Shown one piece after another: positions 28,285-64,000 of a stretch of 64,000 bases of DNA (positions within the stretch are counted from its first letter, which is position 1; each line of letters starts with the position of its first letter). Made by a program: the position numbers and the translations under genes. Location of the stretch: NCBI GenBank assembly GCA_000146465.1, contig CP001946.1; one strand, 5' to 3'. Below the pieces are notes generated by a model. That model was not told the origin of the DNA. It made no database searches and saw nothing but the letters and a program-made list of their open reading frames with translations.

Positions 28285-28980
28285 TTAACTAACAAGACGC
28301 TCCATCAGATTGCAACAGTGGGGTAGAATCCAGAAGTCAAAGAGATGGCCTTTGTCTTCTCCCTCAATCAGAATTCTTCTAATGGCCTTCTTTTTCTTTT
28401 CAAATTTCTGGCCTGTATAAACAATTTTGTTGTTGTTCACAAACTTAACATACTCCGAGGCAAGAAATTCTTCTTTGAATTTTTCTGTCCATTCTGTGAT
28501 ATTTTGATTTTGATTTGTCTTTGTTGAATTGCAGGCATCAAGAATAGAGAGAAGCTTTGCCCACCAAGCTTTCTTATCGCTATTAAAAGGACTGCTGATA
28601 TCATATAGTTGGGAAAAAATTTCTTTGAACTCTTGTCCAATATACAAGTTAAATTCCCTCAGGCTTGCTTTTCCTATCTCCTTCTCGATCAGCTTGTGTG
28701 CATCGATATACCATAAGCACACCTGCATCTCAAGCCCCTCAAGATCGTTCCGTATCTTGGATAGAATTTCTGTCATTTCCTGAGCAAACTCAGGTGTGTC
28801 TTCTCCCTTAATGTTCTCTAGGATGTTGTTGTTCAAGATGAAAAAAGAAAACTCGTTCGAATGTACTAAGGCCGATGCCTTCCAGGCCATCTCCAACAAA
28901 TTCACAAGAATGAGAATCTTGGGCTCTTTGGTATAAGCAACACATCGGAGAATAAGATTAAGGCGTGATTTTTCACTCAT
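28285..28980 (-). CDS. Hypothetical protein (231 aa)
   Basis: ORF whose ATG overlaps the stop of the upstream PRI2 gene (ATGA). No recognisable domain. Confidence 0.4.
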   Translation of the reverse strand: MSEKSRLNLILRCVAYTKEPKILILVNLLEMAWKASALVHSNEFSFFILNNNILENIKGEDTPEFAQEMTEILSKIRNDLEGLEMQVCLWYIDAHKLIEKEIGKASLREFNLYIGQEFKEIFSQLYDISSPFNSDKKAWWAKLLSILDACNSTKTNQNQNITEWTEKFKEEFLASEYVKFVNNNKIVYTGQKFEKKKKAIRRILIEGEDKGHLFDFWILPHCCNLMERLVS

Positions 28981-38224: not shown

Positions 38225-38446
38225 TATGGTGAATGGATTAAGGTGTTTAGTAGCCCCTTGGGGAATGTATTTTGAGTATGATAAGGCTATAATGCAAAAG
38301 ATAATCAAGAAGCTTAAGGAGGAAAGCGATGAAGATCAAGGAATCGAAGATCATAACAAAGGGAATGGAGAGGAATAATATAATAGATGAGGACATCTGT
38401 TTTTGAGTTATGGTAATAAATTTTTGGCTTGTTTATTCACCCAGGA

Positions 38447-40683: not shown

Positions 40684-40765
40684 GGATTAATTGTTTATGG
40701 GTATCATTTATCTTCAAAATCTGGAACCTGATGGAAAGTATAGTGGGAGGAAAGAATGCCCCCAA

Positions 40766-44740: not shown

Positions 44741-45277
44741 TTATTTATCAAATACTTCGGCAATAAAATGGTCAAACAACACTACTTCCTGTTCCCGGCA
44801 GTCCTCCGTACTAATCGGAGAAAAGTGGAGTGTTTGGCTATACTTCTCATTGCCATTCGAGCAAACACCAGGATGGTTTCTACCGCTGGAGGCTGGAGTC
44901 ATCCTGAACGTTGGGGACTGGGGAGTGTACTCTTCGGATACACTTGCACTTTCAAAGGCAGAAGTGGATATAAATGCATCAAGCTTCTTATAGTTTGAGT
45001 TGTCTTTTGCAAACTCCCTGTGCTCAAACTCTTTTATGTGTTCTTCATAATTGCTGAACCTGGTGTAGCAAATTTCACAAAAGCCTTCCCGAGTATGGCG
45101 GCGTTTGTTTGATTGTTTGTACTTCTTGGTGGCCTGGAAAGGACAGCATAGAGTTGGGCTGTCCAGGTGAAGTTTTGGGGCATCTGAGTTAACGTATTCC
45201 TTGTAGAACGGTTGGAACTTGTTCTTAAAGTCCTCTATAAGAACATAAGGCTTCTTGAATACTTTGTAGCTCTTCAT
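44741..45277 (-). CDS. Minimal Dbf4-type zinc-finger protein (Cdc7 regulatory subunit motif C only)
   Basis: REGFCEICYTRFSNYEEHIKEFEHREFAKDNSNYKKLDAF matches the zf-DBF (Dbf4 motif C) CCHH consensus GYCE.C...Y..L..H..S..H..FA....NY..LD. Confidence 0.65.
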   Translation of the reverse strand: MKSYKVFKKPYVLIEDFKNKFQPFYKEYVNSDAPKLHLDSPTLCCPFQATKKYKQSNKRRHTREGFCEICYTRFSNYEEHIKEFEHREFAKDNSNYKKLDAFISTSAFESASVSEEYTPQSPTFRMTPASSGRNHPGVCSNGNEKYSQTLHFSPISTEDCREQEVVLFDHFIAEVFDK

Positions 45278-46768: not shown

Positions 46769-46834
46769 GAAATCAATAAATGTTTCTCTTGAGGATGAAG
46801 AGAAAGGATATATACTTGACTTGTGAAGCGAACA

Positions 46835-46950
46835 GTTGCGGCCATATCCACGGAAAAGCACCGGAACTCGTCAGATCTCCGCAGTTAAGCCTGTGCGAGC
46901 CCGGATAGTACTGAGGCGGGAGACCACTCGGGAATCCCGGGTGCTGCAAC
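46835..46950 (+). rRNA. 5S ribosomal RNA
   Basis: GTTGCGGCCATATCCACGGAAAAGCACCG...CAGTTAAGC...GGGAGACC...GGGTGCTGCAAC is near-identical in its conserved blocks to eukaryotic 5S (compare yeast GGTTGCGGCCATATCTACCAGAAAGCACCG...GGTGCTGCAAT). The terminal helix I pairs GTTGCGG with CTGCAAC. The sequence is about 116 nt. Confidence 0.93.
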
Positions 46951-46955
46951 TTTTT
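46951..46955 (+). terminator. Oligo-T Pol III terminator directly after 5S rRNA
   Basis: TTTTT immediately after the 3' end of the 5S helix I. Confidence 0.8.
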
Positions 46956-48197: not shown

Positions 48198-49424
48198 ATG
48201 TGTAGGAAGACTAAGGGAGTGTTCCTTTTGTTCTTTTCTGTAAGACTTGGCATAATGCTTTGGGAGGTTAGATTTCAGCACCTCTATTCCTCATATCTGG
48301 AAAGAGGACTGCCATGGTTTAAGCCAGATACTTTGACAGGAAAGATGGCTACTGATGGAAGATTGTTTGGCGATGCACAGCTCAAAGCTTCAAACCTTAG
48401 GCTCAAAAGCCTGTATAAAGAGATGAAAGCTCTTGTGCTGTACATGGGAGTTGTATTCTTGATATTCAACAACAAGATCCGAAGCAAAGCAATCAGGTTG
48501 TTGGGATTTCTTTGGATACCCAATTCAGAAGTAATGTTCCTATTACTTCTGATTTCCACAATTACCTTTATAGAGAAACTCTGTGGTGTAGGGCTCACAC
48601 TAGTAGAAGGCACGTGCAGTGTGAGATATATAGAGTATCCGTTTAATATGGTAGTTTTATTTCTTGTAGAGCTCCCACTCACAATATGCCTCATAATAAA
48701 GCTTTTTGAGCTCCTGAGGAAAAAGACTATGGCGACATTCTATGCTGCCTTTGTAATAAGCAACTTATTCAACACCTTTTGGAATGCAAGGATAGATAAG
48801 AACAGGCTAACCAAGGTTCCTCTTGAGAAGTTTCCGTCGAAACTACAAGCGATGCTTAAGTCCGAGGGACTGGAAGAATCGATCTACAAAGTTAAAGGCA
48901 CCCAAGAGAAAAAAAATGCATCTCTGATTGGATTTAGCAGCTTTAAAAGAATTGAAATAACCGGAGACTTTGACAAAGATCCAAAAAAACTATATCCTGT
49001 CCTGTTCCATGAAATAGGCCATTCGATTGATAACATTATACTAAAGAAAAAGATTATTATACACATAATAGTGGGATGCGAGGCGTTAGCATTTTGGTTG
49101 ATTTATGTAAAAGGAAGCAAGGCTTTTGGATTTTCAGACATAACGTCCGAGTCATTTGTCTTGATCATTCTTGCCATGTATCTGGTTCTTGGAAGGACTT
49201 TGATCCTTATCCCTTTAAATATGTATGTGCAGCGTTCGGAGTTATTTGCCGATGAAATTGCATTGGCAAACGGACATGGAAAAGAGCTTTCTCAAACACT
49301 GTTTGACATGGCTTTAGAGCACAGCACAGTTATTGATACGACATATCTTTTCAATGCGATAGCATCGTTACATCCTATTGTTAGAGAAAGAATCGATAGA
49401 TGTGGAAGTCTCCTGCAGAAATAG
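48198..49424 (+). CDS. Ste24-like M48 zinc metalloprotease (CAAX prenyl protease 1 family), paralog A
   Basis: Multi-TM protein. NASLIGFSSFKRIEI matches the Ste24 SNAYF.G....KRIVL. HExxH is LFHEIGHS, the downstream SRSELFADE corresponds to Ste24 EFQAD, and the C-terminal SLHPIVRERI corresponds to Ste24 SHPPL.ERI. Confidence 0.75.
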   Translation: MCRKTKGVFLLFFSVRLGIMLWEVRFQHLYSSYLERGLPWFKPDTLTGKMATDGRLFGDAQLKASNLRLKSLYKEMKALVLYMGVVFLIFNNKIRSKAIRLLGFLWIPNSEVMFLLLLISTITFIEKLCGVGLTLVEGTCSVRYIEYPFNMVVLFLVELPLTICLIIKLFELLRKKTMATFYAAFVISNLFNTFWNARIDKNRLTKVPLEKFPSKLQAMLKSEGLEESIYKVKGTQEKKNASLIGFSSFKRIEITGDFDKDPKKLYPVLFHEIGHSIDNIILKKKIIIHIIVGCEALAFWLIYVKGSKAFGFSDITSESFVLIILAMYLVLGRTLILIPLNMYVQRSELFADEIALANGHGKELSQTLFDMALEHSTVIDTTYLFNAIASLHPIVRERIDRCGSLLQK

Positions 49425-49449: not shown

Positions 49450-50040
49450 ATGAATGGAATTGAAGACAGCAATCCATTTGAAGAGCTTAAAGAATATGAA
49501 GTGGTTGTGGCATACGACGATGAAAACAAGAAGCTTTCCAACGTAATGAAGGATAGAGGGCTTGATTATGTCGAGGTGAATCTGGCGGTTTCTGAGAAGC
49601 TCAGGACAGAATTTATGAAACATTTTAGAGTTTCTGAACTCCCTGTGCTCTTGATTGAAGGAATACCTGCTCTTGACGATCCAAGTGAAAGGATTAAGGA
49701 GTATATTGAGAGAAAAGAGAAAAAATCCTTAGAGAAAATTCAGAGTGTGATTGATCCTAACAAGATTACTCTTTTCATTAAGGGATCCCCCGAACATCCA
49801 AGATGTGGATTCACCAAGTCCCTTATAGAAATTTTGTATGGCTTAGGAGTAACAAGGGATAAAATAGAATACCTTGATGTTCTTTCAGATGAGGATATTA
49901 GGGAGAGACTAAAAGAAATAAACAGATGGCCCACTTTTCCACAGGTATACATTAGGGGCCGATTCATAGGGGGGTTGGATATTGTCCGAAAGATGTCTGA
50001 AAAAGGAAAGCTTAAAGATGAACTCTCAGGAATAATCTGA
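49450..50040 (+). CDS. Monothiol glutaredoxin (Trx-like N-domain + CGFS-type Grx domain, Grx3/4/PICOT-like)
   Basis: LFIKGSPEHPRCGFTKSLIEIL...WPTFPQVYIRGRFIGGLDIV matches the monothiol Grx consensus (MKG.P..P.CGFS.......WPT.PQL...GE..GG.DI). Confidence 0.8.
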   Translation: MNGIEDSNPFEELKEYEVVVAYDDENKKLSNVMKDRGLDYVEVNLAVSEKLRTEFMKHFRVSELPVLLIEGIPALDDPSERIKEYIERKEKKSLEKIQSVIDPNKITLFIKGSPEHPRCGFTKSLIEILYGLGVTRDKIEYLDVLSDEDIRERLKEINRWPTFPQVYIRGRFIGGLDIVRKMSEKGKLKDELSGII

Positions 50041-50100
50041 AAATAAAACCTGTTGTTTGTATTCTTGATACATATTAAAAGAATTCCAACAAACAAAAAG

Positions 50101-51315
50101 ATGAAGTACCTTTCTCGAGGGATGTTCTATTTGTTCTTCATGCTTACGTATCTTGCCCAGATGATAGAGGTCTTGAATGTATTGATCACCAAAAGTCATC
50201 TGGACTCTGGACAAACAGGAATTGAAGAAGGACTAGCAACAAACGAAATGGCAAAGAAAGATCAGGACTATGCCCCCAAAGCCAAGAAAGCAATAGGAAA
50301 AAGAAACAAGGAGCTACTTGAGGATATAGTGGCACACACTATCCATTTTACCGCCAACATCTTGTTCTTTACTGGGATTGGAAAATCGTTTAGCATGAGA
50401 ATACTTGGCAAGATCTTTGGGGAGATATTTGACCTTGAGATTGTGTTCCTTACAGCCGTAATTTCGATGATTTCCCTTGATGGTTTTATAGAGTATATTG
50501 TCTGCTTGGTATATAAGAATCCGTCGCTAGAAATGATTTTCTTGTGGTGTTTCTTTGCAATTGTATTTGTTATCCCAACATGTATCCTCATTTCTATAAA
50601 GCTCTTGAGGATCTTTGGATCCAGTTTCGTAATTTCCTGTTATCTCTCCTACTTCATTCTGGAGATATCTGATATCTTATCTGTATCCAATGTGGATTTT
50701 AGTAAGATGGAGAAGGTGCCATCAAATATATTTTCGGAGAATGTCCAGGTTCTTATGAAGGACAGAGGGCTTTCGGATTCTATCTATAGAGAAATAAATC
50801 CGGGAAAGAACGTCAATGCAGCTCTTATAGGGATTGGCGGTGCTGAGAGGATTGAAATCTACGGAAAAGTCGAGAATATGAACGATGGACAGCTGGAATC
50901 TATATTGATTCATGAAGTAGGACATTCCTATGATGGAAGTTTGGTCAAGAAGATATCGGTCTTTTTGATTCTTCTGGGTTTTGAAATGATGCTTTTAGTA
51001 TTCTTGTACGATAACATAGCAAAAGAATTCATATGGAACAATATTTCGAAGGAGGGGTCATTTGTAGTGCTTGTATGCCTTTATTTTGCATCAATCCGTC
51101 CATGGTTGTTTATTCTGTATAACCTTACGTCTCAAAGTGCAGAGATGTACGCAGACCTTTTAACAAAACAATATAACTACAATGGAAAGCTGGCAGATAC
51201 TCTATACAAGATATCTGTGGACTCCTTTGATTTCCTGGCACCATCCTGGCTGTACAACAGCTTAAACTCGTTACATCCCAGTATAATGAACAGGATTGAA
51301 TATCTAAGCAACTAA
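50101..51315 (+). CDS. Ste24-like M48 zinc metalloprotease, paralog B (tandem duplicate of 48198-49424)
   Basis: Same architecture as paralog A: NAALIGIGGAERIEIYG, HExxH LIHEVGHS, SQSAEMYAD, C-terminal SLHPSIMNRIEYL. The preferred start is the Met at 50101. Confidence 0.75.
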   Translation: MKYLSRGMFYLFFMLTYLAQMIEVLNVLITKSHLDSGQTGIEEGLATNEMAKKDQDYAPKAKKAIGKRNKELLEDIVAHTIHFTANILFFTGIGKSFSMRILGKIFGEIFDLEIVFLTAVISMISLDGFIEYIVCLVYKNPSLEMIFLWCFFAIVFVIPTCILISIKLLRIFGSSFVISCYLSYFILEISDILSVSNVDFSKMEKVPSNIFSENVQVLMKDRGLSDSIYREINPGKNVNAALIGIGGAERIEIYGKVENMNDGQLESILIHEVGHSYDGSLVKKISVFLILLGFEMMLLVFLYDNIAKEFIWNNISKEGSFVVLVCLYFASIRPWLFILYNLTSQSAEMYADLLTKQYNYNGKLADTLYKISVDSFDFLAPSWLYNSLNSLHPSIMNRIEYLSN

Positions 51316-52141: not shown

Positions 52142-53050
52142 TTATGTTTCATCAGGTATGTCATACGTACTTAGATATCTATTTTTCTTCCTTACTCCTA
52201 TCTTCGTGCAGTATTCAGACTCAAAACTTACTTCACTGTCGGTATAGTCTTTTTTATAGTGCTTTTTGAGTTCAACAATAGCTCTGGTTAGAGAGTCTCT
52301 CTCTTTTAGTAGGCTAAACAAGGAAGGACTATAGACTCTATTCAAGATAGACTTAAGTTCTTCGTCTGTTGGAAGACATTTTCTTGCAAACTCTTTGAAG
52401 TAGAACTCGTCGACTTTTGGATTTCTATGAACTATGAGTCTTAATGCCTCAAGGAGACCTAGTTCATGGTATATGTACTTCAAAGACTCCAAGGAAAGTT
52501 GTTCCATATATTTTCTGTTGCAATGCTTTTTAAACAAGGCAATCTTTGAATTTCCGCACAGCTTATCCTTACATCCGTTGTTGTTATTGCAAAAATCCTC
52601 AAGAATCTTAGTGAAGTAGCTAAAGACATCGATGCTGAAATGAGTAAATAAGTATTTCAATATTCTGCCGATTATCTTGTTGTATGTATCCGATCCACAG
52701 CAAACCTTTTCGTTTTGTGTCTTCTCATGTATGAATATTTGTAATAGTAGCCGTTCTATTGTTTCATCACGGAAGTTTAAGGATGCAATCCTCTGCATTG
52801 CACCATCATAGTCCTCAAAATAGATATAGTTGTATAGTATTTCATGATTATATATAACCTTTTGGTTCCCGACTAGCTTGTGCTGAAGAGCTTGAATAGC
52901 CTTGTTTTTTTGGTTAGTTCTTCTGTAGATGCTTGCTAAGACCGAAGGATTTCTCCTCAAAATCTTCTTTGTTATACTTTTGTCCAACAGGCCTGTGTCA
53001 CAGTTGGGTGTCCCAAAAATAACCAAGTCCTTTTTTCTTATCAAGCTCAT
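52142..53050 (-). CDS. Hypothetical protein (302 aa)
   Basis: Long ORF with coding-like composition and several Cys pairs (CCGSDT; CKDKLCGNS). No recognisable family. Confidence 0.4.
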   Translation of the reverse strand: MSLIRKKDLVIFGTPNCDTGLLDKSITKKILRRNPSVLASIYRRTNQKNKAIQALQHKLVGNQKVIYNHEILYNYIYFEDYDGAMQRIASLNFRDETIERLLLQIFIHEKTQNEKVCCGSDTYNKIIGRILKYLFTHFSIDVFSYFTKILEDFCNNNNGCKDKLCGNSKIALFKKHCNRKYMEQLSLESLKYIYHELGLLEALRLIVHRNPKVDEFYFKEFARKCLPTDEELKSILNRVYSPSLFSLLKERDSLTRAIVELKKHYKKDYTDSEVSFESEYCTKIGVRKKNRYLSTYDIPDET

Positions 53051-53183
53051 GGATATTGATCTTAGGGTTTTGTATAAAATTCACATAATTGGTTGGTATG
53101 ATGTTCTGGAGAAATCGGCTTGTGATTGGACATTCAGTATAAGTGGGATTGGACGAGTATTGGATATAAGAAAGAGGAAAGCA

Positions 53184-54149
53184 ATGGGGATGGACACCAA
53201 GATTAAGATAGATCTAGACAAGGAGATGTATCCCGGGGGGTCTGAAGTAAGAGGAGCCGTTGACATAAAGATGAGGAGTCCTCTTCGGATAAGTAAGATA
53301 AATCTGGTGTTCTCTAAGACAACAAGACTAAAGATACAGGAGATTGAGAGAAAGGAAAATACAGAGAACAACGAAGTCGAGAAGATATATGATGGATACA
53401 GACATGAATTTGAGATATACTCAAGTGATGACCCATTAGAAGAGGTATCTAGTGGGCACCATCGATTCCCATTCCGATTCATGCTCCGGAGAGAAGACGA
53501 AGGATCTCTTGAAATAAAAGGAGTCTACTTTGATATCCTGTGCAATATAAGAAGTATATACGACTTATATGCAGAGATTTATATCCTTGGAGTTCACAAT
53601 CCGGCATATACTGTCCGAAGAGAGATACAAATAGTAGATCCCATCATGGAGCCCAGGAACTTTAATACAGCCATTGATGTGCTATCACCCATCTGCTTTC
53701 TAAGTAGGAGATATAACATCCGTCTTGAAGTTGACAAGGAATTCTATTACTCGGGAGACTGTCTAGTTACTGAAGCTTCTATACCATCTAAGAAGCCCAA
53801 GATTAAGAGAATGGAGTGCTTTATATATGAAATTCTCAGCGTTTCTGTGGAAGGAAAAGAGATTCTTAGGACAAAATACATTGGAGGGGGAGAGGCCGAA
53901 CATTATGATGGTGGAAGAGTCCTTCGGGCATCCCTGAAGATACCTTCAACAACACCATCCACTGTCATGGGCAGTAACTTCAGCATAAGAGTTGTTTTGT
54001 TCATAAACCTTGAGCTGTATAGAGGAACACCTGTCCGAATCAAGAAATACATTCATGTCATCAAGAAAAATATAATTCATCCAGAAATTGATTGTATGGA
54101 TGTTCTTGAGGGAGAAATATATCCGGAAAGAATACTTGTATTACCATAG
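53184..54149 (+). CDS. Arrestin-fold protein (arrestin-related / Vps26-like beta-sandwich)
   Basis: From the Met at 53184, IKIDLDKEMYPGGSEVRGAVDIKMRSPLRISKINLVFSKT is the typical arrestin N-domain pattern. The first 85 codons of the track ORF overlap the upstream convergent gene and are unlikely to be coding. Confidence 0.5.
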   Translation: MGMDTKIKIDLDKEMYPGGSEVRGAVDIKMRSPLRISKINLVFSKTTRLKIQEIERKENTENNEVEKIYDGYRHEFEIYSSDDPLEEVSSGHHRFPFRFMLRREDEGSLEIKGVYFDILCNIRSIYDLYAEIYILGVHNPAYTVRREIQIVDPIMEPRNFNTAIDVLSPICFLSRRYNIRLEVDKEFYYSGDCLVTEASIPSKKPKIKRMECFIYEILSVSVEGKEILRTKYIGGGEAEHYDGGRVLRASLKIPSTTPSTVMGSNFSIRVVLFINLELYRGTPVRIKKYIHVIKKNIIHPEIDCMDVLEGEIYPERILVLP

Positions 54150-54215
54150 AGTTTTTATAAGTTGGATGATTTGAAGATTCCTGATGGAGGAGGCCCCCAG
54201 AGTATGTAGTGTTTA

Positions 54216-54884
54216 CTAGTCTTTCTTCCTATTCTTGCATGCCTTGACCTTTCTAGACCATTTCCGTTGTCTTAGCATGTGGGAGAACAAGAAGATGAAT
54301 CCGGGAATATACACCACACCAGCCAATACTACAAAGTAAGAGAGTATTTTTCCTAGGGAGTAATACAGAGTTTTCAGGCAGTACATCTCAAGTGCAAATC
54401 CTATCGGAGATGTTAGGAGAAACAAGTTGTATCGAATGACTCTAATTGTGTCAACACGAAACATATAGAAAACATATCTTATCGAGTCCGAAAGATACCA
54501 GCATGTTGTTATAATGGGGAAAGTCCAGTCGATAATTCCATAGTACCAGAAAACAACCCAAATGATGAACATCCGGGATACTAGCTGCATCACTGTGGGA
54601 ACATATCTAGCATTGCTTTTTTTTGCACATATATTTGCTACTTCCATCAGAAAAAATGTTTGGCAGAGCCCAGCCTCTCTTAGGTATTTTGGATCCATTG
54701 TCTTGTAGAACATTAGGCTGGTTGAAAGAGCTACTATACAGATAATAAAGCCAACAGTATTGTATATTCTTATATAACTTAGGTACACCATTATCAGGGG
54801 GTGTATTTTGGAAATTGTCTCTGTTCTATTATCGATTTTGGCGGATGGACATTTAGGCACTTTATTGAGGAAAAGGGATGCCAA
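54216..54884 (-). CDS. PHS1: Very-long-chain 3-hydroxyacyl-CoA dehydratase (Phs1/HACD, PTPLA family)
   Basis: Multi-TM protein. ITTCWYLSDSIRYVFYMF matches the PTPLA T.WS.TE.IRY.FY motif containing the catalytic Tyr. Confidence 0.7.
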   Translation of the reverse strand: MASLFLNKVPKCPSAKIDNRTETISKIHPLIMVYLSYIRIYNTVGFIICIVALSTSLMFYKTMDPKYLREAGLCQTFFLMEVANICAKKSNARYVPTVMQLVSRMFIIWVVFWYYGIIDWTFPIITTCWYLSDSIRYVFYMFRVDTIRVIRYNLFLLTSPIGFALEMYCLKTLYYSLGKILSYFVVLAGVVYIPGFIFLFSHMLRQRKWSRKVKACKNRKKD

Positions 54885-54970
54885 GGGATTGAGTTTAGGA
54901 ACGTGTGTGTGTATGGTCTGTATTCCAGATTATTATGCTTTAAGCATGAGTAAGCGGGAGTTTTGTTCTC

Positions 54971-55906
54971 TTGAATAAAATATTTCAAGTTGCAGACCCC
55001 ATGCAAATATTCATAGGAAAGATCCCAAGTCACGTTAGCGAGGAACAAATCAAGGAGTATTTTGGACAGTTTGGAGAGGTCACGGATTTGAGCTTGAAGG
55101 GAACATACGGATTCCTTAATTTCGATTCCGAAAGCAGTATAACAAGGGTTCTTAACCAGAGATCCCACGCCATTGATGGCTTGCCCATATCTGTGGAAAG
55201 AGCCAATGGACGAAAAAGACCTCTTGATGGAGAATACCATGATAGATACATGGACATGGGACGAGGAGGATACTCCCCCCATCGGGACTATCGAGGATTT
55301 CGAAACGCACCCTATCCCCCCTCTATGAGATACGATGGTAGATCTCCAGGAAGATATGACCCGAGGTTTCCCGATCGATACGGAGGTAGGTCACCGGAAT
55401 ACCGTGGAGATGGCTTTCGAGGAGACCCTCAAAGGAGCAGAGACTTCTGTGAGTATTGTAACTCATGTCCCATCCATGGCATAAGGGATGTGGTGGATTC
55501 AAGAAAAAGACTACATACCACAAGGGATCATCCTAACAATCATCTGAAGGTAGTTTTTGAGAACATTGCTCCGAATACAACTGTTGAAGACTTCAAGAAC
55601 TTTGTGCATGATCATGGTTTTGAGCCTTCCTATGCAAGGCTTGGATATAGTGGAAATCATGCTGTTCTTGAATTCAAAAACATTGAGGACAAGGATAATG
55701 TCATGAAGAAGCTCGATGGAGTAGAATTCAATGGCCATGTTCTCAAGACCAGATCCTATCTTTCCAAGGATGAGTACAAGAGCAGAGAAAGGGAAAGTTA
55801 TACGAGAAATGAACTCCAGCCAACTGATACAAACTCATCAGAGCCACAAGGTACGACTGGTGATATTTATGAAGGGATTGAGGACGGAAAGGCTGAAAAT
55901 GATTAA
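54971..55906 (+). CDS. SR-like RNA-binding protein (RRM + pseudo-RRM with an Arg/Gly/Pro/Asp/Tyr-rich linker)
   Basis: RRM1 IFIGKIPSHVSEEQIKEYFGQFGEV...GFLNFDSE. The linker is GRSPGRYDPRFPDRYGGRSPEYRGDGFRGD. The second RRM-like domain is LKVVFENIAPNTTVEDFKNF...AVLEFKNIEDKDNVMKKLDGVEF. Confidence 0.7.
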   Translation: MNKIFQVADPMQIFIGKIPSHVSEEQIKEYFGQFGEVTDLSLKGTYGFLNFDSESSITRVLNQRSHAIDGLPISVERANGRKRPLDGEYHDRYMDMGRGGYSPHRDYRGFRNAPYPPSMRYDGRSPGRYDPRFPDRYGGRSPEYRGDGFRGDPQRSRDFCEYCNSCPIHGIRDVVDSRKRLHTTRDHPNNHLKVVFENIAPNTTVEDFKNFVHDHGFEPSYARLGYSGNHAVLEFKNIEDKDNVMKKLDGVEFNGHVLKTRSYLSKDEYKSRERESYTRNELQPTDTNSSEPQGTTGDIYEGIEDGKAEND

Positions 55907-55940
55907 AAACCTTGGATCACTTTACTAGACATTTTTGGGG

Positions 55941-56285
55941 TCATGGTTTTACTCCTTGGGCAGTTCCATCATTCCTGAGCAGTAATTTTCCGATCAGTGC
56001 AGTGTTTGTTCTATAGTTTTTCTTGAATGTCACAATGTAATTTGTGTTTCTAAGCAATATAGAGCTCGTGTTCTCTTTCAGAAATATTTTACTGCCGGCT
56101 CCGAAATCTATTGGGTCGATGAAATAAACAACCTTGTATCCAGACTCGTTCTGAACCAGTGCCTTATGCATGCCCTCTGTATGTTCTGTTCCTGCTTTTA
56201 AAGAAAGTAGAGGTTTGGATATGCACAATATTTCAATAACTTTATATCCGCCTTTGTCCAGTGAGATTGGATCTTTACGCATCAA
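55941..56285 (-). CDS. Hypothetical small protein (114 aa), possibly an OB/beta-barrel fold
   Basis: ORF in a tight convergent spacer. Beta-rich composition. Cannot be assigned to a family. Confidence 0.3.
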   Translation of the reverse strand: MMRKDPISLDKGGYKVIEILCISKPLLSLKAGTEHTEGMHKALVQNESGYKVVYFIDPIDFGAGSKIFLKENTSSILLRNTNYIVTFKKNYRTNTALIGKLLLRNDGTAQGVKP

Positions 56286-56338
56286 AGGGCCTTGAAGATG
56301 GAAGTTGTTTTGAACAAAGGAAGTAGGAGAAACGTATT

Positions 56339-57553
56339 TTAATGAGTGTTTTTATCTTTCTCTGGTCTAAGAAAGAGCTTCAGAATCATTTGGACTGCTA
56401 GGCTGAAGACAAGAAACACATGACCTGCAAAATACACACCTTTCCATACATGTATAAGATCGGAGATGCTCAGAAGAAAGAAGGAGGTGGTGAAATATGT
56501 TGTAAGAAGAAGCATCTGGATTCTAGACAGTATCCAGAACAGGGATGGACAAAAGCGTTGAAGCAACTTGTTGTTTTCCTTTACAATTGGTATGGAGGAT
56601 GAGAAGGAAAGAAACATTATCAAATAGCATGGATTTATGCCATGCCAGAGTGCGGAAACACCAGATGTTGCTATGCTTGCCCAAAATATGGACTTTTCTT
56701 TCATCGGGAGGAAAAAGCAATTTTTCAGCCAAATCCCAGTACATATATTCCAGTAGGTACTTAGGTCCTTTACACTTGTTGCTAACTCTACTTTCATGAA
56801 GTCAGCATTTAGAAGGTCTGGGAAGTTCTGGAACGCAAAGCATCCATGAGAGAAGTGCCAAGCAAAGTAGAACTTTATCCTATTTCCCACTGTGAAGAGG
56901 TACAAATAAATAAGCCTTGATAGTAACGAAGTGTTCTCTTCCAAAAGATGGCTCCTTGGAACACTTATTCTTAAGGCTTGGAAGAGAATCAGAAATGCAA
57001 AAGATTTTAGAAAAGTTCCATAGGGAGGTCTTTTTGGCTCTTCGTACTTATTTTGGATGAAATCTTTAAATGTTGGGGTTGGACCTAGCATAAGGCCTGG
57101 TGTAAACAACATGTACGAAAGGGCATCCTTTATGGAGTTCGTCTTCCTGTCATATTCCTTTCCAAGATAGCACATTTTTATGGTCATCAACATTAAAACT
57201 CCGGAGATGTCGAATGATCCTGAAATTCTTTCTTCAAATAAAGGTCCGAAGATTTTGTAAATGTAAAGGATTAGAATGTTGAACAGAGTAAACGAATACT
57301 CTGACATCGGGATGTACTTGAGAAGGAGGGAATTTAGGAAGATCGATCCAAGTATATATGCAGTGTGCTTGTAATCAAAGGCAATGTACAGAATCAACAT
57401 TGCGGATAGTAGATGATGGGCTCTTGCCCTATTTCTCATAGTATAACTTGTGAATAATGTTAGAAAAAGGGAAGCCAGGAATCTGCGCTCCAAATGGCTT
57501 ACCTCTGAGATTTTCCTTATCATTAAGAGCAGAAAATTTCCAGCTATTTTCAA
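56339..57553 (-). CDS. MBOAT-family membrane-bound O-acyltransferase (lysophospholipid acyltransferase, Ale1-like)
   Basis: Multi-TM protein. WNICTGIWLKNCFF...IATSGVSALWHGINPCYLIMF matches the MBOAT core WN..T..WL..YVY.......SA.WHG...GY, with the conserved His in WHG. Confidence 0.75.
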   Translation of the reverse strand: MKIAGNFLLLMIRKISEVSHLERRFLASLFLTLFTSYTMRNRARAHHLLSAMLILYIAFDYKHTAYILGSIFLNSLLLKYIPMSEYSFTLFNILILYIYKIFGPLFEERISGSFDISGVLMLMTIKMCYLGKEYDRKTNSIKDALSYMLFTPGLMLGPTPTFKDFIQNKYEEPKRPPYGTFLKSFAFLILFQALRISVPRSHLLEENTSLLSRLIYLYLFTVGNRIKFYFAWHFSHGCFAFQNFPDLLNADFMKVELATSVKDLSTYWNICTGIWLKNCFFLPMKEKSIFWASIATSGVSALWHGINPCYLIMFLSFSSSIPIVKENNKLLQRFCPSLFWILSRIQMLLLTTYFTTSFFLLSISDLIHVWKGVYFAGHVFLVFSLAVQMILKLFLRPEKDKNTH

Positions 57554-57614
57554 AAGATATTTCGTGAATTTGATTGATAGAGACCAAGACAGTTTTGGAG
57601 ATATGAAATAAATG

Positions 57615-58301
57615 TCATCCAGTCAATTTATTGAGATATTGTTGTAATCTTTCCTTCTTTTTCTGGGGAATGAAAGTAGAATTCACACGCTGAGTAAGAT
57701 CTCCAATATTTACCTCATCTAGATGCATCTCTTCCCAAGATTTCAAAAAGATTTCCATATTGCCTCCCTCATCGCAAGCCAATAGACAGTGAAGGGCTAC
57801 TTCTGCTGGATCACCCGTAAAGTTCCTGAGAGCCCATTCCTTCACTATCTCGGGATAAATATCCATTTTAATGCCAAAATCGCTACATTCCTTAACGCTA
57901 CTAATATAGCATGCTACATCTGCCATGTCCTTGTAATTGATCTTTGCATATCCACCGCTCAGTTTCAGCAACTTCAACTCCTTTTCTACGAGCTCTATCT
58001 GGGAGTCTCCCAAGTAAAAGCAGCCTTGAACATCTACGGGCGGCAACAGATTCCATATGGAGCTAGATGGAATAGAGTCATGAATTTTCTCAAGATCTAA
58101 TGGATTTTCAACGAGTTCGAGTACATGCTTGATCTCTGTATACCTATTGCCCCTTTTTACTATAAAAGTGTTAGATGAAGACACTTTTTTTACTGTGTAT
58201 CCTTTGTCTGGAGACAGGACTTGTGCTTGTGATGTCCCTGTCAGGACTGACATTTCCCTGCTTCCCGATACAAGCAAAAGTGTTTTTTCTCCGATGCCCA
58301 T
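57615..58301 (-). CDS. Hypothetical protein (228 aa)
   Basis: Long ORF. Its ATG overlaps a plus-strand ATG head to head (CCCATGG). No family assignment. Confidence 0.4.
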   Translation of the reverse strand: MGIGEKTLLLVSGSREMSVLTGTSQAQVLSPDKGYTVKKVSSSNTFIVKRGNRYTEIKHVLELVENPLDLEKIHDSIPSSSIWNLLPPVDVQGCFYLGDSQIELVEKELKLLKLSGGYAKINYKDMADVACYISSVKECSDFGIKMDIYPEIVKEWALRNFTGDPAEVALHCLLACDEGGNMEIFLKSWEEMHLDEVNIGDLTQRVNSTFIPQKKKERLQQYLNKLTG

Positions 58302-58791
58302 GGAAGAGAAATTTTACTCGGAGGATATTAAGTCTGTTAGCTGTGATTTGGATGAGGCCAGATCTTCTATCCAGAACGAGGTTCTTGATGTAAAAAGTGA
58401 CTTGCTATCGGTGTATCTTATGAATCTTGTTCTTTACAAGGAGATGGATTCGGAAGATAGAAAAGGAAGCCCAGTAGAAGAAATGTTGAGCAAGACAAGT
58501 ATTCTTCTTGAGAAAATATGTGCTATTGAGCGTAGAGCTGGGAGTCTCGGGGAGGTGCCCCAAAGCGAAGAAAACAAGGGCAGTGTGGAAGAGGAAGATC
58601 CTGCAGAAGAGGGAAAGAGAACAATAACAGACAAAATGAAAAAAAATAAGTTCGTTAAGAAGAGAAAGGCAGAAGATCGAATACCAAGGCTTAAATATAA
58701 AAACAAGGCCAGAAAGCTTGCAGAAATGGCAGAGATAAAGCATGATGGAAATATAGACACCAAGAAGCCAAGCTTTAATAAATTTGACTAG
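58294..58791 (+). CDS. Hypothetical Lys/Glu-rich protein (possible nucleolar or ribosome-biogenesis factor)
   Basis: An ORF from the internal Met (MPMEEKF...) with a KKNKFVKKRKAEDRIPRLKYKNKARK basic tail. Upstream in-frame codons overlap the divergent gene. Confidence 0.4.
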   Translation: MPMEEKFYSEDIKSVSCDLDEARSSIQNEVLDVKSDLLSVYLMNLVLYKEMDSEDRKGSPVEEMLSKTSILLEKICAIERRAGSLGEVPQSEENKGSVEEEDPAEEGKRTITDKMKKNKFVKKRKAEDRIPRLKYKNKARKLAEMAEIKHDGNIDTKKPSFNKFD

Positions 58792-58884
58792 AGACTTTAG
58801 AATGGAGTTTCTGGGAAATGCTTATGTTTTTTCTTCTTGGGACTATTAGGTTTAATTCCAAAAAAAAATTTGCCCTGAATAGAG

Positions 58885-59211
58885 ATGAGTGGAAAGAGCA
58901 GCAAGGGTGACAACGTTACATCTGCACTTCTGTTAGCGATGAAGACTGGAGAATGTATTGTTGGATTTAAGAGGGCCATAAAGTCTATCATTATGAAGAG
59001 GGCAAAATGCCTTGTTATTTCATCAAATTACCCATCCACAAAGAGGAAGCAGCTTGAGTATTACAGTGTCCTTGCAGGGGGACTTCCTATTATTTTCCAC
59101 AATGCTAACAACGAGGAGCTAGGAAACATCACCGAGAGAGGGCATAGACTGGGATGCATTTCGATCATTGATCAAGGTGAGGCAGATCTAATACCTGCAA
59201 AGGGAGAATAA
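58885..59211 (+). CDS. RPL30: 60S ribosomal protein eL30
   Basis: LLLAMKTGECIVGFKRAIKSIIMKRAKCLVISSNYPSTKRKQLEYYSVLAGGLPIIFHNANNEELG...IIDQGEADLI aligns with eL30 (LVMKSGKY.LGYK.TLK.IR.GKAKLVILA.NCP.LRKSEIEYYAML...NIELGTACGK...IIDPGDSDII). Confidence 0.9.
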   Translation: MSGKSSKGDNVTSALLLAMKTGECIVGFKRAIKSIIMKRAKCLVISSNYPSTKRKQLEYYSVLAGGLPIIFHNANNEELGNITERGHRLGCISIIDQGEADLIPAKGE

Positions 59212-59282
59212 AAGTTATTTAATTGATTTCTTGTGTATATTGGTCTAGTAGAATTTCCTGCCCTTACAAAATAAAACTTTAA

Positions 59283-59510
59283 ATGCATCTTATAAGGCTG
59301 AGGTGTACCGATAGGATGTCGGTGTCTGTTTTGATTACCATAGGAGTGGATAATACAATCAAAGAACTGAAGGAGGAAATATGCCGGCATATAGGAAAAG
59401 ACAGGGAGCAAATTACTCTTAAGAGGGAAAATAGGGAACTAGCAGACAGCATTGAAATTGATGCATACGAGCTTAAAGATGGGGAGTGTATAGAGATTGA
59501 GTACAGATGA
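59283..59510 (+). CDS. HUB1: Hub1/UBL5 ubiquitin-like modifier (splicing-associated)
   Basis: LIRLRCTDRMSVSVLITIGVDNTIKELKEEI...LKDGECIEIEYR aligns with Hub1 ([30 protein letters not shown]...HDGMNLELYYQ). It ends without a di-Gly, as Hub1 does. Confidence 0.75.
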   Translation: MHLIRLRCTDRMSVSVLITIGVDNTIKELKEEICRHIGKDREQITLKRENRELADSIEIDAYELKDGECIEIEYR

Positions 59511-59595
59511 GCAAGTTCTCATGATTAGGGTGGTCTTTACCCGCGAGAAATAGTCTCTGATGTTATACTAAAAGTGAAGATATTATAGACCCAGG

Positions 59596-60897
59596 ATGTC
59601 CAAAAAGATAATAAGAGAAAAAATAAAGAGTGGAAAGAAAATAGCAGAGGAGGCACTGAAGGATGTGGTGAACTACGATATACTTAGGACAGAGTCTTGT
59701 GGATACATTGAAGTAGATTCAGACGAAAAAACTTATGATGTGACACAAGGGAAGATTCGAAAGTATGTTAGTATCAAAGCATCTGAGCAGGCGTACGATC
59801 TGAAACTAGAAAACGGCCCTGTGCATGCCAAATATTCGAGAAATGGAAACCACATTCTTCTAAGAAATGATAAAGGATATTTGGCATCGTTTAATAGCAA
59901 ATCGATGGATCTTCATTTTGAGATGGATGTGAATGAAACAATACACGATGCAATATATCTCCACAACGAACGGTTTATTGCAGTTGCTCAAAAGAACAAT
60001 GTTTTCATATACGACGGGAATGGAGTTGAACAGCATTGCGTAAGAGAAAACAGCCATGTATTTAAAATGGAATATCTCCCATACCACTACCTTCTGGCAA
60101 GTGCATCGCACCAAGGGTTCTTAAGGTACCAAGATATATCTACAGGAAAGATTGTTAGCGAAATTTTTATAAAAGAGCGAAGAGTTACTTCTATGAAACA
60201 GAATCCGGCAAATGCCATCATACATACCGGCAGCATCAAAGGTGTTGTTAGCCTGTGGTCTCCTAACTGTAAAGAATATCTTATGAAAATACTATGTCAT
60301 AGAAATACCATTTCAAGCATTGAGATTGAGAGAAGTGGAAGGTACATGATCACAGCAGGGATGGACAATAGAATTAACGTGTGGGACCTGAGGAATACGT
60401 ATACGCAACTCAACAGCCTGAAAGGAAAGACCAGCTTGTCTGCAACATCCTTGAGCCAGAAGAACATGCTGGCCCTATCCTATGGGAACAACGTCTATAT
60501 ATGGAAAAACTTCATTGATTTGAATTCTGACGAGGCGCTATATATGAAGCACAAGACGGGAACACTTGTATCAAGCATTGACTTCTGCAACTATGAGGAC
60601 ATACTATGTGTTGGAAGCTTGAATGGAATATCAACGATCATCGTTCCAGGATGTGGAGATCCGGTATATGACTCCTACGAGGATTCTCCATTTATTTCTA
60701 AGAAAGCAAGAAGTGAAAAGGAGGTTAGAAGTTTGATAGAAAAGATACCTTACGAGCTTATATCCATAGACTCCAAAGTTGGAAGTATTTTCAAAGAACC
60801 TAGAATGGATAGACCTAAGGAGGAGTTGCCTAGGTATTTTGAAGATAAGCCTGTTAGAAGGGGAGCCTTGAGTAGGTTCTATGATAGAGGAGATTGA
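59596..60897 (+). CDS. UTP7: U3 snoRNP / SSU processome WD40 protein Utp7 (WDR46/BING4)
   Basis: YSRNGNHILLRNDKGYLASFN...ETIHDAIYLHNERFIAVAQKNNVFIYDGNGVEQHC...LEYLPYHYLLASASHQGFLRYQDISTGKIV...QNPANAIIHTGSIKGVVSLWSPN matches Utp7 conserved blocks (YTRNGRHLLLGG.KGH.A..DW; FLHNE.FFAVAQKKY.YIYD; LEFLPYHFLLAT; QNP.NAVI..GH.NGTV..WSPN). Confidence 0.85.
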   Translation: MSKKIIREKIKSGKKIAEEALKDVVNYDILRTESCGYIEVDSDEKTYDVTQGKIRKYVSIKASEQAYDLKLENGPVHAKYSRNGNHILLRNDKGYLASFNSKSMDLHFEMDVNETIHDAIYLHNERFIAVAQKNNVFIYDGNGVEQHCVRENSHVFKMEYLPYHYLLASASHQGFLRYQDISTGKIVSEIFIKERRVTSMKQNPANAIIHTGSIKGVVSLWSPNCKEYLMKILCHRNTISSIEIERSGRYMITAGMDNRINVWDLRNTYTQLNSLKGKTSLSATSLSQKNMLALSYGNNVYIWKNFIDLNSDEALYMKHKTGTLVSSIDFCNYEDILCVGSLNGISTIIVPGCGDPVYDSYEDSPFISKKARSEKEVRSLIEKIPYELISIDSKVGSIFKEPRMDRPKEELPRYFEDKPVRRGALSRFYDRGD

Positions 60898-60989
60898 ACA
60901 AATGGTCTTGGTATTCCGAGTGAGTAAAACAGATGGTTTTCTTTAAGAAATTTTAATTTTTCGATGTTCTGGGAAACATGTAAAGTTAA

Positions 60990-62000
60990 CTACTTCGATT
61001 CAAAAAACGGATGCTTCAGACATTCTTCTGCAGTAGGCCTACTTTGGTGATCATAAACCAATATCCTCTCCAACAGGTCTATTGCATTGGCATATAAGGC
61101 AGCCGATCCAGGAGGTGAAAAGGAGGAAAGTAACACTCTTTCTCCCGTACCCTCGTGTTTTGGGCTGAGTGGGTCCATCTTGTATTTCTCAATGTACTTT
61201 CTTAGGTCAGTGTATCCTAAAACTCTAGCTATCTTAACAAGTTGATCACTATTACTTTCTCCATGGAAAAAAGGTCTTCTCCTAAATACTAACTCTGCAA
61301 GTACACATCCAAAGGACCAAATGTCAAGAGAATAGTCGTAGTATGGATAATCAACCAGTAGTTCCGGGCTTTTGTAGTATCGGCTTGCAACTCTTACACT
61401 ATATTCTTTTCTTGGGTGATAAAACTCAGCAAGTCCCCAGTCGATTATCTTCAACTCTCTTTTTTCCTGATTGATTACCATATTCTGCGGCTTGATGTCT
61501 CTATGAATTATCCCCATGCCGTGGCAGTAGCTAAGTGCAGAAAGAATCTGTCTGGAATACTCGACAACATCCTTGTAACTTAATTTTTCAAATATTTTTG
61601 CATAGTCTTCGTGCTCTACATATTCGAAGATCAAAGAGTATATTTGAGACTCAGAATCTACAACAACATCCATCAAGTTTATGATGTTTTTATGAGAAAG
61701 ATTCTTCAGTATTAGAACCTCTCTGCATATCTTTGCCTTCCGTACGGGCTTTAAAGTTTTTATTACTATCTTCTCTCTATCCTTCCGCCCTTCAAAGACC
61801 TCGGAGTACTTTCCTCGGCCCATTCGCTGGTATATTTGGTATCTTTCTATGCATCCAGTAGGTATGCTATAGTATTCATAATTCCAATACTTCTCATCCT
61901 TCTTCTCATTAACATACACGTTTGATTTCGCTATAGTTGGAATAACCATTGTGTAGGGATTCTTAGGAAGGCCAGGAAAGTAAAATCCTGATAAAACCAT
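60990..62000 (-). CDS. CKA1: Casein kinase II catalytic subunit alpha
   Basis: YQIYQRMGRGKYSEVFEG, HRDIKPQNMVINQEKRELKIIDWGLAEFYHP, VRVASRYYKSPELLVDYPYYDYSLDIWSFGC and RPFFHGESNSDQLVKIARVLGT match CK2 alpha almost block for block. Confidence 0.92.
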   Translation of the reverse strand: MVLSGFYFPGLPKNPYTMVIPTIAKSNVYVNEKKDEKYWNYEYYSIPTGCIERYQIYQRMGRGKYSEVFEGRKDREKIVIKTLKPVRKAKICREVLILKNLSHKNIINLMDVVVDSESQIYSLIFEYVEHEDYAKIFEKLSYKDVVEYSRQILSALSYCHGMGIIHRDIKPQNMVINQEKRELKIIDWGLAEFYHPRKEYSVRVASRYYKSPELLVDYPYYDYSLDIWSFGCVLAELVFRRRPFFHGESNSDQLVKIARVLGYTDLRKYIEKYKMDPLSPKHEGTGERVLLSSFSPPGSAALYANAIDLLERILVYDHQSRPTAEECLKHPFFESK

Positions 62001-62042
62001 TTAATGTTATTGACCAGGATTGAAGTAGACAAATCTACCAAC

Positions 62043-62915
62043 TCATTGCCTTGAGTAAGAGGACTTAACTCTGAACACACCCTGTTGCCCTGTCAAACAT
62101 ATCAGGGTTCCATCTTGGTGTATAAGCTGTCCTTCGCAAATAGCTTTTGAATTCCTTATTCCTTTACACTTTACAATATAATACAAATAGCAATCATCAA
62201 TATTTTTTTCAAGATTCACAAAGTTCACTACATGGTTCAAAGAAGTCAATAGAGATAGATCCTTGGAGAATAGAGACAGATTCGACGTTATGAGAGCAGT
62301 TTCCATTAGTAGTATATCGGTAATTAAGGTGATAAGGGAAGCCTTCTCGACCATACTCTCAGGTTTTTCTTTTATTCTAATACGGATTTGTCTCATGTCC
62401 TTATTCTCTTTCCCTACATCCACATCCAACACCTTGAACAGCATCAACATGTTTTCATATAGAACCTGGAACTTGACGGCTATCTCTGCCTGGTTTGTCG
62501 AGGTGTTGGCAAGGGACCTTGATATATATTCCGAAAACGGGATAAATTCATCATCATAAGCTGTATACGGGGGACTTTCGTAGTCATGGGAATTGTTATC
62601 CGGCCTGCTAAAGCTGATATGAGAACTAGATATCAAAACATCGTCCTGATAGCAATCTACCTGCCTCATGTCCATGATACTACCATTTCTTAGATTTTTA
62701 ACCGAATACCTAACCTTTTTGTCAGATTTACATCGATTAATAAACAGAATGTTCATTGTAACCGGGACTGAATCCGAGCTGACGGTTGAAAATGCAGACG
62801 CAAGGGATTGTGCTGCCAACTGTCCTCCGAATGCAGGGTATCCCGGCAAAGGAGACCAAAGGTTACTTCCTTCAAAGGTCCAGCTGTCAAGCCTTGCTAT
62901 TTTGAGAAATTCCAT
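62043..62915 (-). CDS. Acyl-CoA thioesterase II (TesB/Tes1-type double hotdog)
   Basis: The N-terminal PGYPAFGGQLAAQSLASAFSTV matches the thioesterase-II motif (VFGGQ..AQAL.AA..TV). The 290 aa length fits the two-hotdog architecture. Confidence 0.6.
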   Translation of the reverse strand: MEFLKIARLDSWTFEGSNLWSPLPGYPAFGGQLAAQSLASAFSTVSSDSVPVTMNILFINRCKSDKKVRYSVKNLRNGSIMDMRQVDCYQDDVLISSSHISFSRPDNNSHDYESPPYTAYDDEFIPFSEYISRSLANTSTNQAEIAVKFQVLYENMLMLFKVLDVDVGKENKDMRQIRIRIKEKPESMVEKASLITLITDILLMETALITSNLSLFSKDLSLLTSLNHVVNFVNLEKNIDDCYLYYIVKCKGIRNSKAICEGQLIHQDGTLICLTGQQGVFRVKSSYSRQ

Positions 62916-63003
62916 GGGGGATTCCCTCAGTAAGGTTTTTTATAGGAATGAGAAGATTGAAATGTTATGGCTGATGAAAAGGAATTTTTTTCTACCTTGC
63001 AAA

Positions 63004-64000
63004 ATGTCTCTGGAGAGAGAACCGTTGAAAGGAAAAGTATTTGTGTTTACAGGGGACATGAAGATGAGCAGAGACGATGCGAAGGCAAGAGTAATGGTTC
63101 TCGGTGGGAGATGCACAACAGCACCATCGTCCAAGACGTCCTTTCTTGTTGTGGGAGACAATCCTGGGCCGATGAAGATACAAAAAGCAAATGAATTGAA
63201 TATAAAAATCCTAAACGAAGAGGAATTTGTTAAATTGGTTGAGAGTAACATAGATGATTTTAGCAGTACACCCGAGACAGAAAAACATCTAAAAATGGAT
63301 CCGGAAAAAGGGGGTGGGTCTGCTTTAAGTAGTGTATGGAATGAAAAGTACAGGCCCAAGAGAAAAGATGAAATTATAGGAAATCCAGGGATTATGAAGC
63401 AGTTGGAGGACTATCTTCAGGGATGTACAAAATATAAGGCAGCTTTGTTAAGTGGGCATCCGGGAATTGGAAAAACAACCATGGCCCACATTGTCTGTAG
63501 ATCTCTTGGATTTGATGTAGTCGAGTTCAATGCCAGTGATATTAGAAACAAATCGGAGATAAGTAGCAAGGTAAGGAGTTTTACCAATAGCCAATCGATT
63601 TGTTCCGGAACATCAAAGAAGAAAGCTCTCATAATGGACGAAGTCGACGGGATGTCAAGTGACAGAGGGGGAATTCCCGAGCTTGTAAGTGTGATTAAAA
63701 AGACAACAATACCAATTATATGCATATGCAACGATCGCAATAATCTGAAAATAAGAACATTGTCCAACCATTGCTTGGATCTAAGATTTAGAAAACCAGA
63801 CTCTAGGCCAGTACTCTTAAGAATAAAACATATACTGGAGAAGGAGGGAAAAAGAATACCTGATGGAGTTCTAAGTGAAATAATAGCAAAGAGCAACGGA
63901 GATATAAGATACGCCATCAGCATGGTACAAGGAATTTCACTCAGAAGAACTCTTAATTCCAGTATATCTACAAACTTCGTCAAGAAGAGCGTAATGAAGA
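63004..64000 (+). CDS. RFC1: Replication factor C large subunit (RFC1), 5' part (BRCT + AAA+ module); gene continues past the window end
   Basis: The ORF is absent from the supplied track because it has no stop within the window. BRCT: LKGKVFVFTGDMKMSRDDAKARVMVLGGRCTTAPSSKTSFLVVGDNPGPMKIQKANELNIKIL. Clamp-loader box: VWNEKYRPKRKDEIIGNPG. AAA+ Walker A LLSGHPGIGKTTMAHIV, Walker B LIMDEVDGM, sensor-1 IICICNDR. Alternative in-frame starts lie at 62962 and 62974. Confidence 0.85.
   Translation, partial: MSLEREPLKGKVFVFTGDMKMSRDDAKARVMVLGGRCTTAPSSKTSFLVVGDNPGPMKIQKANELNIKILNEEEFVKLVESNIDDFSSTPETEKHLKMDPEKGGGSALSSVWNEKYRPKRKDEIIGNPGIMKQLEDYLQGCTKYKAALLSGHPGIGKTTMAHIVCRSLGFDVVEFNASDIRNKSEISSKVRSFTNSQSICSGTSKKKALIMDEVDGMSSDRGGIPELVSVIKKTTIPIICICNDRNNLKIRTLSNHCLDLRFRKPDSRPVLLRIKHILEKEGKRIPDGVLSEIIAKSNGDIRYAISMVQGISLRRTLNSSISTNFVKKSVMK

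Follow-up and report, generated by a model that had tools for sequence, protein, structure and literature searches.

A predicted gene for RFC1, the large subunit of the clamp loader, at the right edge of a 64-kb stretch of Encephalitozoon intestinalis DNA

A 64-kb slice of DNA from Encephalitozoon intestinalis, a microsporidian parasite (contig CP001946.1; all 64,000 nucleotides (nt) are called the window below) ends within a gene on the plus strand. As judged by sequence comparison, positions 63004–64000 almost certainly encode the first part of RFC1, the large subunit of the clamp loader, of E. intestinalis ATCC 50506. The gene is already known and annotated in E. intestinalis, and the finding is correct but ordinary. 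The features of the predicted coding sequence within the window, with positions in amino acids (aa) of the protein, are as follows.

63004..64000, plus strand: predicted 5′ part of RFC1, 997 nt (332 codons and 1 nt) of a 1701-nt coding sequence
63016..63237, plus strand: BRCT domain (RFC box I, ligase-homology region), aa 5–78; PF00533, E = 1e-15, 58.1 bits against a cut-off of 21.3 bits
63334–63360, plus strand: RFC box II VWNEKYRPK, aa 111–119; aligned with lWtvKYaPt of yeast Rfc1
63445..63789, plus strand: AAA+ ATPase core, aa 148–262; PF00004, E = 4.7e-14, above the curated cut-off
63454–63480, plus strand: Walker A GHPGIGKTT, aa 151–159; GPPGIGKTT in yeast Rfc1
63637–63651, plus strand: Walker B DEVDG, aa 212–216; DEVDG in yeast Rfc1
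63724–63738, plus strand: sensor 1 ICNDR (Asn), aa 241–245; ICNER in yeast Rfc1
63820..63948, plus strand: AAA+ lid domain, aa 273–315; PF25361 AAA_lid_RFC1, E = 4.8e-7, below the curated cut-off
63898–63909, plus strand: sensor 2/box VIII GDIR, aa 299–302; GDIR in the yeast Rfc1 lid alignment

Identification of the gene

The initial annotation of this DNA, made from the letters alone, had proposed an uninterrupted plus-strand frame at this place, and the frame is indeed open: from the ATG at 63004–63006 it runs through 332 codons to nt 64000 without a stop. A stop-free run of this length is expected by chance with a probability of about 1e-10 at the base composition of the whole window and of about 1e-11 at the local composition. 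The 332-aa translation is 100% identical to residues 1–332 of a 566-aa protein named ‘DNA replication factor C subunit’ (ADM11606.1). This is the same gene, with no difference over the 332 window codons and with identical DNA on the chromosome record CP075162.1. Three newer assemblies contain the same 566-aa protein (KAL7345781.1, KAL7347727.1 and KAL7349688.1). The next protein matches are those of E. romaleae (70% identity), E. hellem (69%) and E. cuniculi (67%), followed by RFC1s across the Microsporidia, and among the top 50 and more database homologues those bearing a name are called RFC1.

The window matches the chromosome record CP075162.1 (226,151 bp), on which it takes up an internal position at roughly 142015–206014. 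Over the 11 kb that were compared, window positions 53004–64000 show 0 mismatches to this record in 10,997 nt, and two further assemblies differ from it by 0 and 1 nt. The complete RFC1 gene is located at 205018–206718 of CP075162.1. Past position 64000 the frame continues for 234 more codons and ends with TAG at the equivalent of window positions 64702–64704; the window holds the first 59% of a single-exon gene. A product of 500–800 aa had been predicted for the extended sequence, and the 566-aa ORF (open reading frame) lies inside this range, with no early stop or frameshift.

The protein displays the domain order of RFC1: the BRCT domain starts at residue 5 and is followed by a linker of about 30 residues, the AAA+ module, the lid and, beyond the window, the collar and the C-terminal domain. 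All motifs read from the sequence in the initial annotation (BRCT, box II, Walker A, Walker B and sensor 1) are present as written there, and the Pfam profiles for BRCT and AAA both match. The profile search that had been suggested as a check gave hits above the cut-off for these two families and an RFC1-like lid below it, while the remainder of the gene on CP075162.1 matched PF08519, the RFC1-specific domain of the C-terminus with the collar and A′ region, over its full length (aa 387–534, profile positions 1–158 of 158, E = 2.8e-34, 118.9 bits against a cut-off of 23 bits). RFC boxes IV–VIII had been expected to appear on extension past 64000. RFC boxes were found, but their location was only partly as expected: sensor 2/box VIII (GDIR) is already inside the window, and only the collar and the C-terminal domain lie beyond it.

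A search against solved structures with the 332-aa fragment returned yeast Rfc1 chains as the best matches (E = 2e-48). Using the full protein, yeast Rfc1 was aligned over aa 66–512 (E = 4.8e-73) and human RFC1 up to aa 559 (E = 3.6e-70). RFC1 chains covered a range of E values from 5e-73 to 2e-60, and the next best matches were an archaeal small subunit (3e-23) and Ctf18 (3e-23).

Nothing of substance speaks against the assignment to RFC1, but two minor details deviate from it. The lid match to PF25361 reaches 29.6 bits and stays under the curated cut-off of 34.9 bits, and position 2 of Walker A is His, whereas it is Pro in yeast and Gln in the three sister species. The lid region aligns to the yeast Rfc1 lid without gaps, GDIR included, and a Walker A with His is compatible with the pattern GxxxxGK[ST].

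The alternative large subunits Ctf18, Elg1/ATAD5 and Rad17/Rad24 share the AAA+ P-loop region with RFC1, and it was only this AAA+ region that they matched in the searches run. We consider it highly improbable that the gene encodes one of them and not RFC1 proper. Such a reading could draw on a weak match to the Pfam Rad17 P-loop family (E = 4e-5; 24.0 bits against a cut-off of 23.8 bits) and on Ctf18 chains, which match the Walker A region with E values of about 1e-22. Against this, the E values of RFC1 chains are better than that of Ctf18 by 50 orders of magnitude, with alignments that span aa 66–559, and the combination of a BRCT domain with a full-length PF08519 domain is the architecture of RFC1. 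Ctf18, Elg1/ATAD5 and Rad17/Rad24 are not known to carry either of these domains. Moreover, Rad17 of E. cuniculi has been assigned elsewhere (ECU01_1180), and RFC1 of this species is ECU05_1530 (PMC9053307). Based on domain content and relative scores, Rad17, Ctf18 and Elg1 were rejected as candidates.

Codon alignments of the first 332 codons were used to count the differences from the sister species at codon positions 1, 2 and 3. These amounted to 61, 51 and 154 for E. romaleae, 67, 54 and 171 for E. hellem, and 72, 54 and 170 for E. cuniculi. The excess of differences at third positions points to purifying selection on the plus-strand frame. It is also one of several observations that make a decaying pseudogene or an assembly artefact scarcely conceivable. 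Three independent assemblies all carry the 566-codon ORF in intact form, with 0–1 mismatch over the 11 kb compared; the motifs of the ATP site (Walker A, Walker B, sensor 1 and sensor 2) are all intact; and RFC1 of E. cuniculi has been reported as present and expressed, together with RFC2–5, Rad17 and PCNA (ECU05_1030) (PMC9053307). We found no point in favour of the pseudogene or artefact explanation and regard it as effectively refuted.

Absence of RFC1 from the ORF list

The program-made ORF list for the window contains 62940–63359 (minus strand, 139 aa) and 63417–63983 (minus strand, 188 aa) in this region, without the plus-strand ORF. The initial annotation had noted this correctly and ascribed it to automated calling on a truncated contig, which would drop such a gene. 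This explanation was rejected: the contig is not truncated, as the chromosome record goes on for about 20 kb past the right window edge, and the gene is publicly annotated in ADM11606.1 and the three newer assemblies. The list leaves out ORFs that run off a window end, and the plus-strand ORF is missing from it because it runs off an arbitrary one. Genes at a window edge vanish from ORF lists that demand both ends, and antisense shadows are then the only features listed. The value of the finding is one of quality control only. RFC1 is an expected housekeeping part of the PCNA-loading machinery.

The left window edge shows the same artefact. A plus-strand frame open from nt 1 to a stop at 918 encodes a B-family DNA polymerase in its C-terminal part (PF00136, profile positions 318–450 of 453, E = 4e-13); among solved structures, catalytic subunits of Pol alpha match it best (E = 1.6e-10). 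In the list, this polymerase tail appears as a 289-aa ORF at 49–918 starting from an internal ATG.

Minus-strand ORFs antisense to RFC1

62940..63359, minus strand: antisense ORF of 139 aa, non-genic shadow; TTG start; no Pfam match
63417..63983, minus strand: antisense ORF of 188 aa, non-genic shadow; TTG start; no Pfam match; L, S, I and F account for 93 of 188 residues

The two minus-strand ORFs are chance antisense shadows of RFC1, as had been claimed in the initial annotation. A Pfam search of both gave no family match, and their lengths are within chance for the frame in which they lie. Neither of them displays the length, the homologues or domains, or the substitutions in its own frame that would mark a protein-coding gene.

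Both ORFs belong to one antisense frame, which has two stops in the window part of RFC1, at 63411 and 63417. By codon geometry, a stop in this frame needs a sense Tyr, His or Gln codon after a codon ending in T or C; the two stops fall at sense DY and LQ. In the four Encephalitozoon orthologues the same frame contains 8–11 stops per approximately 1.7 kb, compared with 22–41 in the other two antisense frames. When the 332 sense codons were put in random order, the mean longest open stretch in this frame was 157 aa (standard deviation 54), and some antisense frame reached at least 188 aa in 26% and at least 139 aa in 60% of the trials. The translations had been described as low-complexity and hydrophobic. 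They are indeed rich in L, S, F and I, because the sense strand of RFC1 is purine-rich (62% purine).

That one or both ORFs are real genes or expressed peptides overlapping RFC1 is very unlikely. They are long (139 and 188 aa), they stand on the ORF list, and antisense as well as read-through transcription has been reported in Encephalitozoon (PMC2803860). Nevertheless, in addition to lacking a family match, both begin with TTG and have the composition expected of a purine-rich complement, their lengths are inside the codon-shuffle expectation, and the substitution pattern tracks the plus-strand frame and not the minus-strand ORFs. Neither is called in the public annotation of the locus. Comparable nested antisense ORFs occur elsewhere in the window: about 26 of at least 110 aa are nested in longer ORFs of the opposite strand, e.g. 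39091–39801, 6403–6987 and 37288–37854 (all minus strand), the longest (236 aa) being inside the Mre11 gene. Shadow ORFs are routine in this gene-dense genome with its purine skew, and ORF tracks will show them again.

Start codon and upstream region

62043..62915, minus strand: divergent neighbour gene for a 290-aa acyl-CoA thioesterase-like protein (4HBT_3); listed ORF; PF13622
62916..63003, no strand: divergent intergenic region of 88 bp between the thioesterase-like gene and RFC1, covered by a four-species alignment

The ATG at 63004 is very probably the start codon of RFC1. The corresponding ATG is the start in the orthologues of E. cuniculi, E. romaleae and E. hellem, which also share a conserved upstream element consisting of a T-run and CC. 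In E. intestinalis, this is a AATTTTTTT run at 62983–62991 followed by CTACC at 62992–62996, 7–21 nt upstream of the RFC1 ATG. In the four-species alignment, the intergenic region has a mean column identity of 83%, and the T-run and the CC are conserved. In E. cuniculi, AAATTT-like and CCC-like signals have been reported a short distance before the start codons (PMC2803860), and the AATTTTTTT/CTACC element, which resembles both, is a putative promoter. On the other side of the region, GGGGGATTCCC adjoins the start codon of the minus-strand thioesterase-like gene.

The plus-strand frame remains open upstream of 63004 as far as the stop at 62650–62652, and in-frame ATGs occur at 62974 (10 codons upstream), 62962 (14 codons) and 62914 (30 codons). 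Initiation at one of these would give a protein 10–30 residues longer; from 62974, the residues MKRNFFLPCK would be added. We regard this as unlikely, although some points count against a start at 63004. Both E. romaleae and E. hellem likewise have the ATG at −10 in frame, which makes it conceivable that the E. intestinalis protein is slightly longer at its N-terminus. Furthermore, the annotation of the E. hellem protein begins at this ATG (MRSKFFSPCR...), which lengthens the N-terminus by 12 residues and gives a total of 579 aa. In E. cuniculi, however, a 1-nt indel shifts the ATG at −10 out of frame, and there is an in-frame stop two codons upstream of the conserved ATG. In all other microsporidian RFC1s examined, the protein begins just ahead of the BRCT core, 3–10 residues before it. 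The conserved AATTTTTTT/CC element is situated between 62974 and 63004, and 5′ untranslated regions in E. cuniculi are reported to be shorter than 7 nt, the start codon being directly preceded by signals of this kind (PMC2803860). Finally, the ATG at 62914 overlaps the start codon of the divergent gene. Because of the frame and stop in E. cuniculi and the N-termini of the orthologues, the starts at 62974, 62962 and 62914 were rejected in favour of 63004. The stop in E. cuniculi also suggests that the 579-aa annotation of E. hellem probably has an over-extended start.

Comparison with RFC1 of other organisms

The orthologues of E. cuniculi (ECU05_1530), E. romaleae and E. hellem, at 67–70% identity, are 567–568 aa long and have the same flanking genes as RFC1 of E. 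intestinalis. Yeast Rfc1 (PDB 7tfh, 8dqz and 1sxj) and human RFC1 (6vvo) show the same order of BRCT, AAA+, lid, collar and C-terminal A′ region, and, apart from the His in Walker A, their Walker A, Walker B, sensor 1 and sensor 2 motifs are conserved in the E. intestinalis protein. RFC1 of E. intestinalis is much shorter, with 566 aa compared with 861 aa in the yeast Rfc1 chain and about 1150 aa in human RFC1. Yeast Rfc1 carries about 150 residues ahead of its BRCT domain, a region that the E. intestinalis protein does not have, and the yeast linker between BRCT and box II is longer. The E. intestinalis protein also lacks two yeast inserts, one of 16 residues that separates box II from Walker A and one of 10 residues before Walker B. 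This compact form is common to all microsporidian RFC1s examined (552–580 aa) and fits the general shortening of proteins in microsporidian genomes.

With respect to the BRCT domain, the best single-domain match to aa 5–82 was the BRCT domain of bacterial NAD+ ligase (1l7b, 1dgs and 2owo), with E = 1.8e-15 for 1l7b from T. thermophilus. Other structure matches were yeast Rfc1 (aa 158–231) and the human RFC1 BRCT domain 2k6g (E = 1.7e-9). The domain is fused to the clamp-loader ATPase in RFC1 and to a ligase in the bacterial enzyme, and the positions T16-G17, R23 and K44 of the E. intestinalis protein are conserved in the BRCT domains of both the bacterial NAD+ ligase and yeast and human RFC1. 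In nuclear magnetic resonance work on the human RFC1 BRCT domain, the TG, R and K positions reportedly act in phosphate binding.

Proposed function

By analogy with yeast and human RFC, as studied by cryo-electron microscopy and crystallography, RFC1 of E. intestinalis would join RFC2–5 to form a spiral of five AAA+ subunits. With ATP bound, the complex would be expected to open the PCNA ring and to place it round a primer–template junction, and hydrolysis of ATP might then release the closed clamp. The BRCT domain may bind 5′-phosphorylated ends at gaps. PCNA, the clamp that is loaded by RFC, is encoded in the window at 3960–4760 on the plus strand (PCNA_N and PCNA_C).

Microsporidian genomes are among the most reduced eukaryotic genomes, and the BRCT domain of RFC1 is dispensable for viability in yeast. 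Tentatively, microsporidian RFC1 could be viewed as a natural minimal RFC1, in which the N-terminal region and several internal inserts were lost and the BRCT domain was kept, together with intact residues at the TG, R and K positions; we rate this as possible but doubtful. If true, binding of 5′ ends or gaps by the BRCT domain would be under strong selection even in a minimal replisome, and the compact protein would be convenient for structural work. A weaker suggestion is that the conserved upstream in-frame ATG at 62974 may give an alternative N-terminus.

Gene neighbourhood and other genes of the window

The thioesterase-like gene sets the upstream limit of the RFC1 locus; every assembly and each of the three sister species has it as a called gene with PF13622. 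The order WD40, CK2-like kinase, thioesterase-like, RFC1 and PCI-domain gene is the same in four species. Scans of the whole window for tRNA genes, Rfam families and tandem repeats found none at the RFC1 locus. They revealed neither tRNA genes nor tandem repeats elsewhere in the window, and the only RNA gene is a full-length 5S rRNA (RF00001, 96.8 bits) at 46834–46952 on the plus strand, which stands alone between protein genes, 16 kb from RFC1.

RFC1 is located near the boundary between chromosome core and subtelomere. Beyond the window, at about 208–217 kb of CP075162.1, the PCI-domain gene is followed by a gene for a 216-aa protein without a Pfam match, a phosphomannomutase gene and then members of the DUF3654, DUF1609 and DUF2463 families. 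The assemblies disagree in the gene models of these families: DUF3654 and DUF1609 form one fused 580-aa product in one assembly and are split in another.

Several listed ORFs differ from the public gene models in their starts. The CK2-like kinase (60990–62000, minus strand) has a public model of 319 aa that starts at 61949, an internal ATG, and not at 62000. An arrestin-N protein (52929–54149, plus strand) likewise has a public model of 319 aa, with its start at 53190 and not at 52929; this avoids an overlap with 52142–53050 (minus strand). The divergent genes 57615–58301 (minus strand) and 58300–58791 (plus strand), both without a Pfam match, overlap head-to-head by 2 nt in CP075162.1. The product of the former has 228 aa in CP075162.1 and 212 aa in two other assemblies, i.e. 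it is 16 codons shorter there. Its start codon is uncertain, because assemblies with near-identical DNA call different starts. Two long proteins of the window have little or no assignment: in the 1061-aa product of 10769–13954 (plus strand) only a C-terminal RING finger was assigned, and the 983-aa product of 40691–43642 (plus strand) gave no Pfam match at E ≤ 1e-5.

Among the approximately 55 genes in the window, six belong to replication or repair: the Pol alpha tail, PCNA, RFC1, the primase large subunit (28977–30218, minus strand), Mre11 (38429–40150, plus strand) and a Dbf4-type zinc-finger protein (44741–45277, minus strand). This clustering is probably a coincidence. In E. cuniculi, PCNA and RFC1 are ECU05_1030 and ECU05_1530 (PMC9053307), in keeping with a conserved synteny on chromosome V. 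Two genes for M48-type peptidases (48198–49424 and 50053–51315, both plus strand) flank a glutaredoxin gene at 49450–50040. Their products are paralogues with 27% identity over about 400 aa (E = 2e-42), and the pair looks like an old local duplication.

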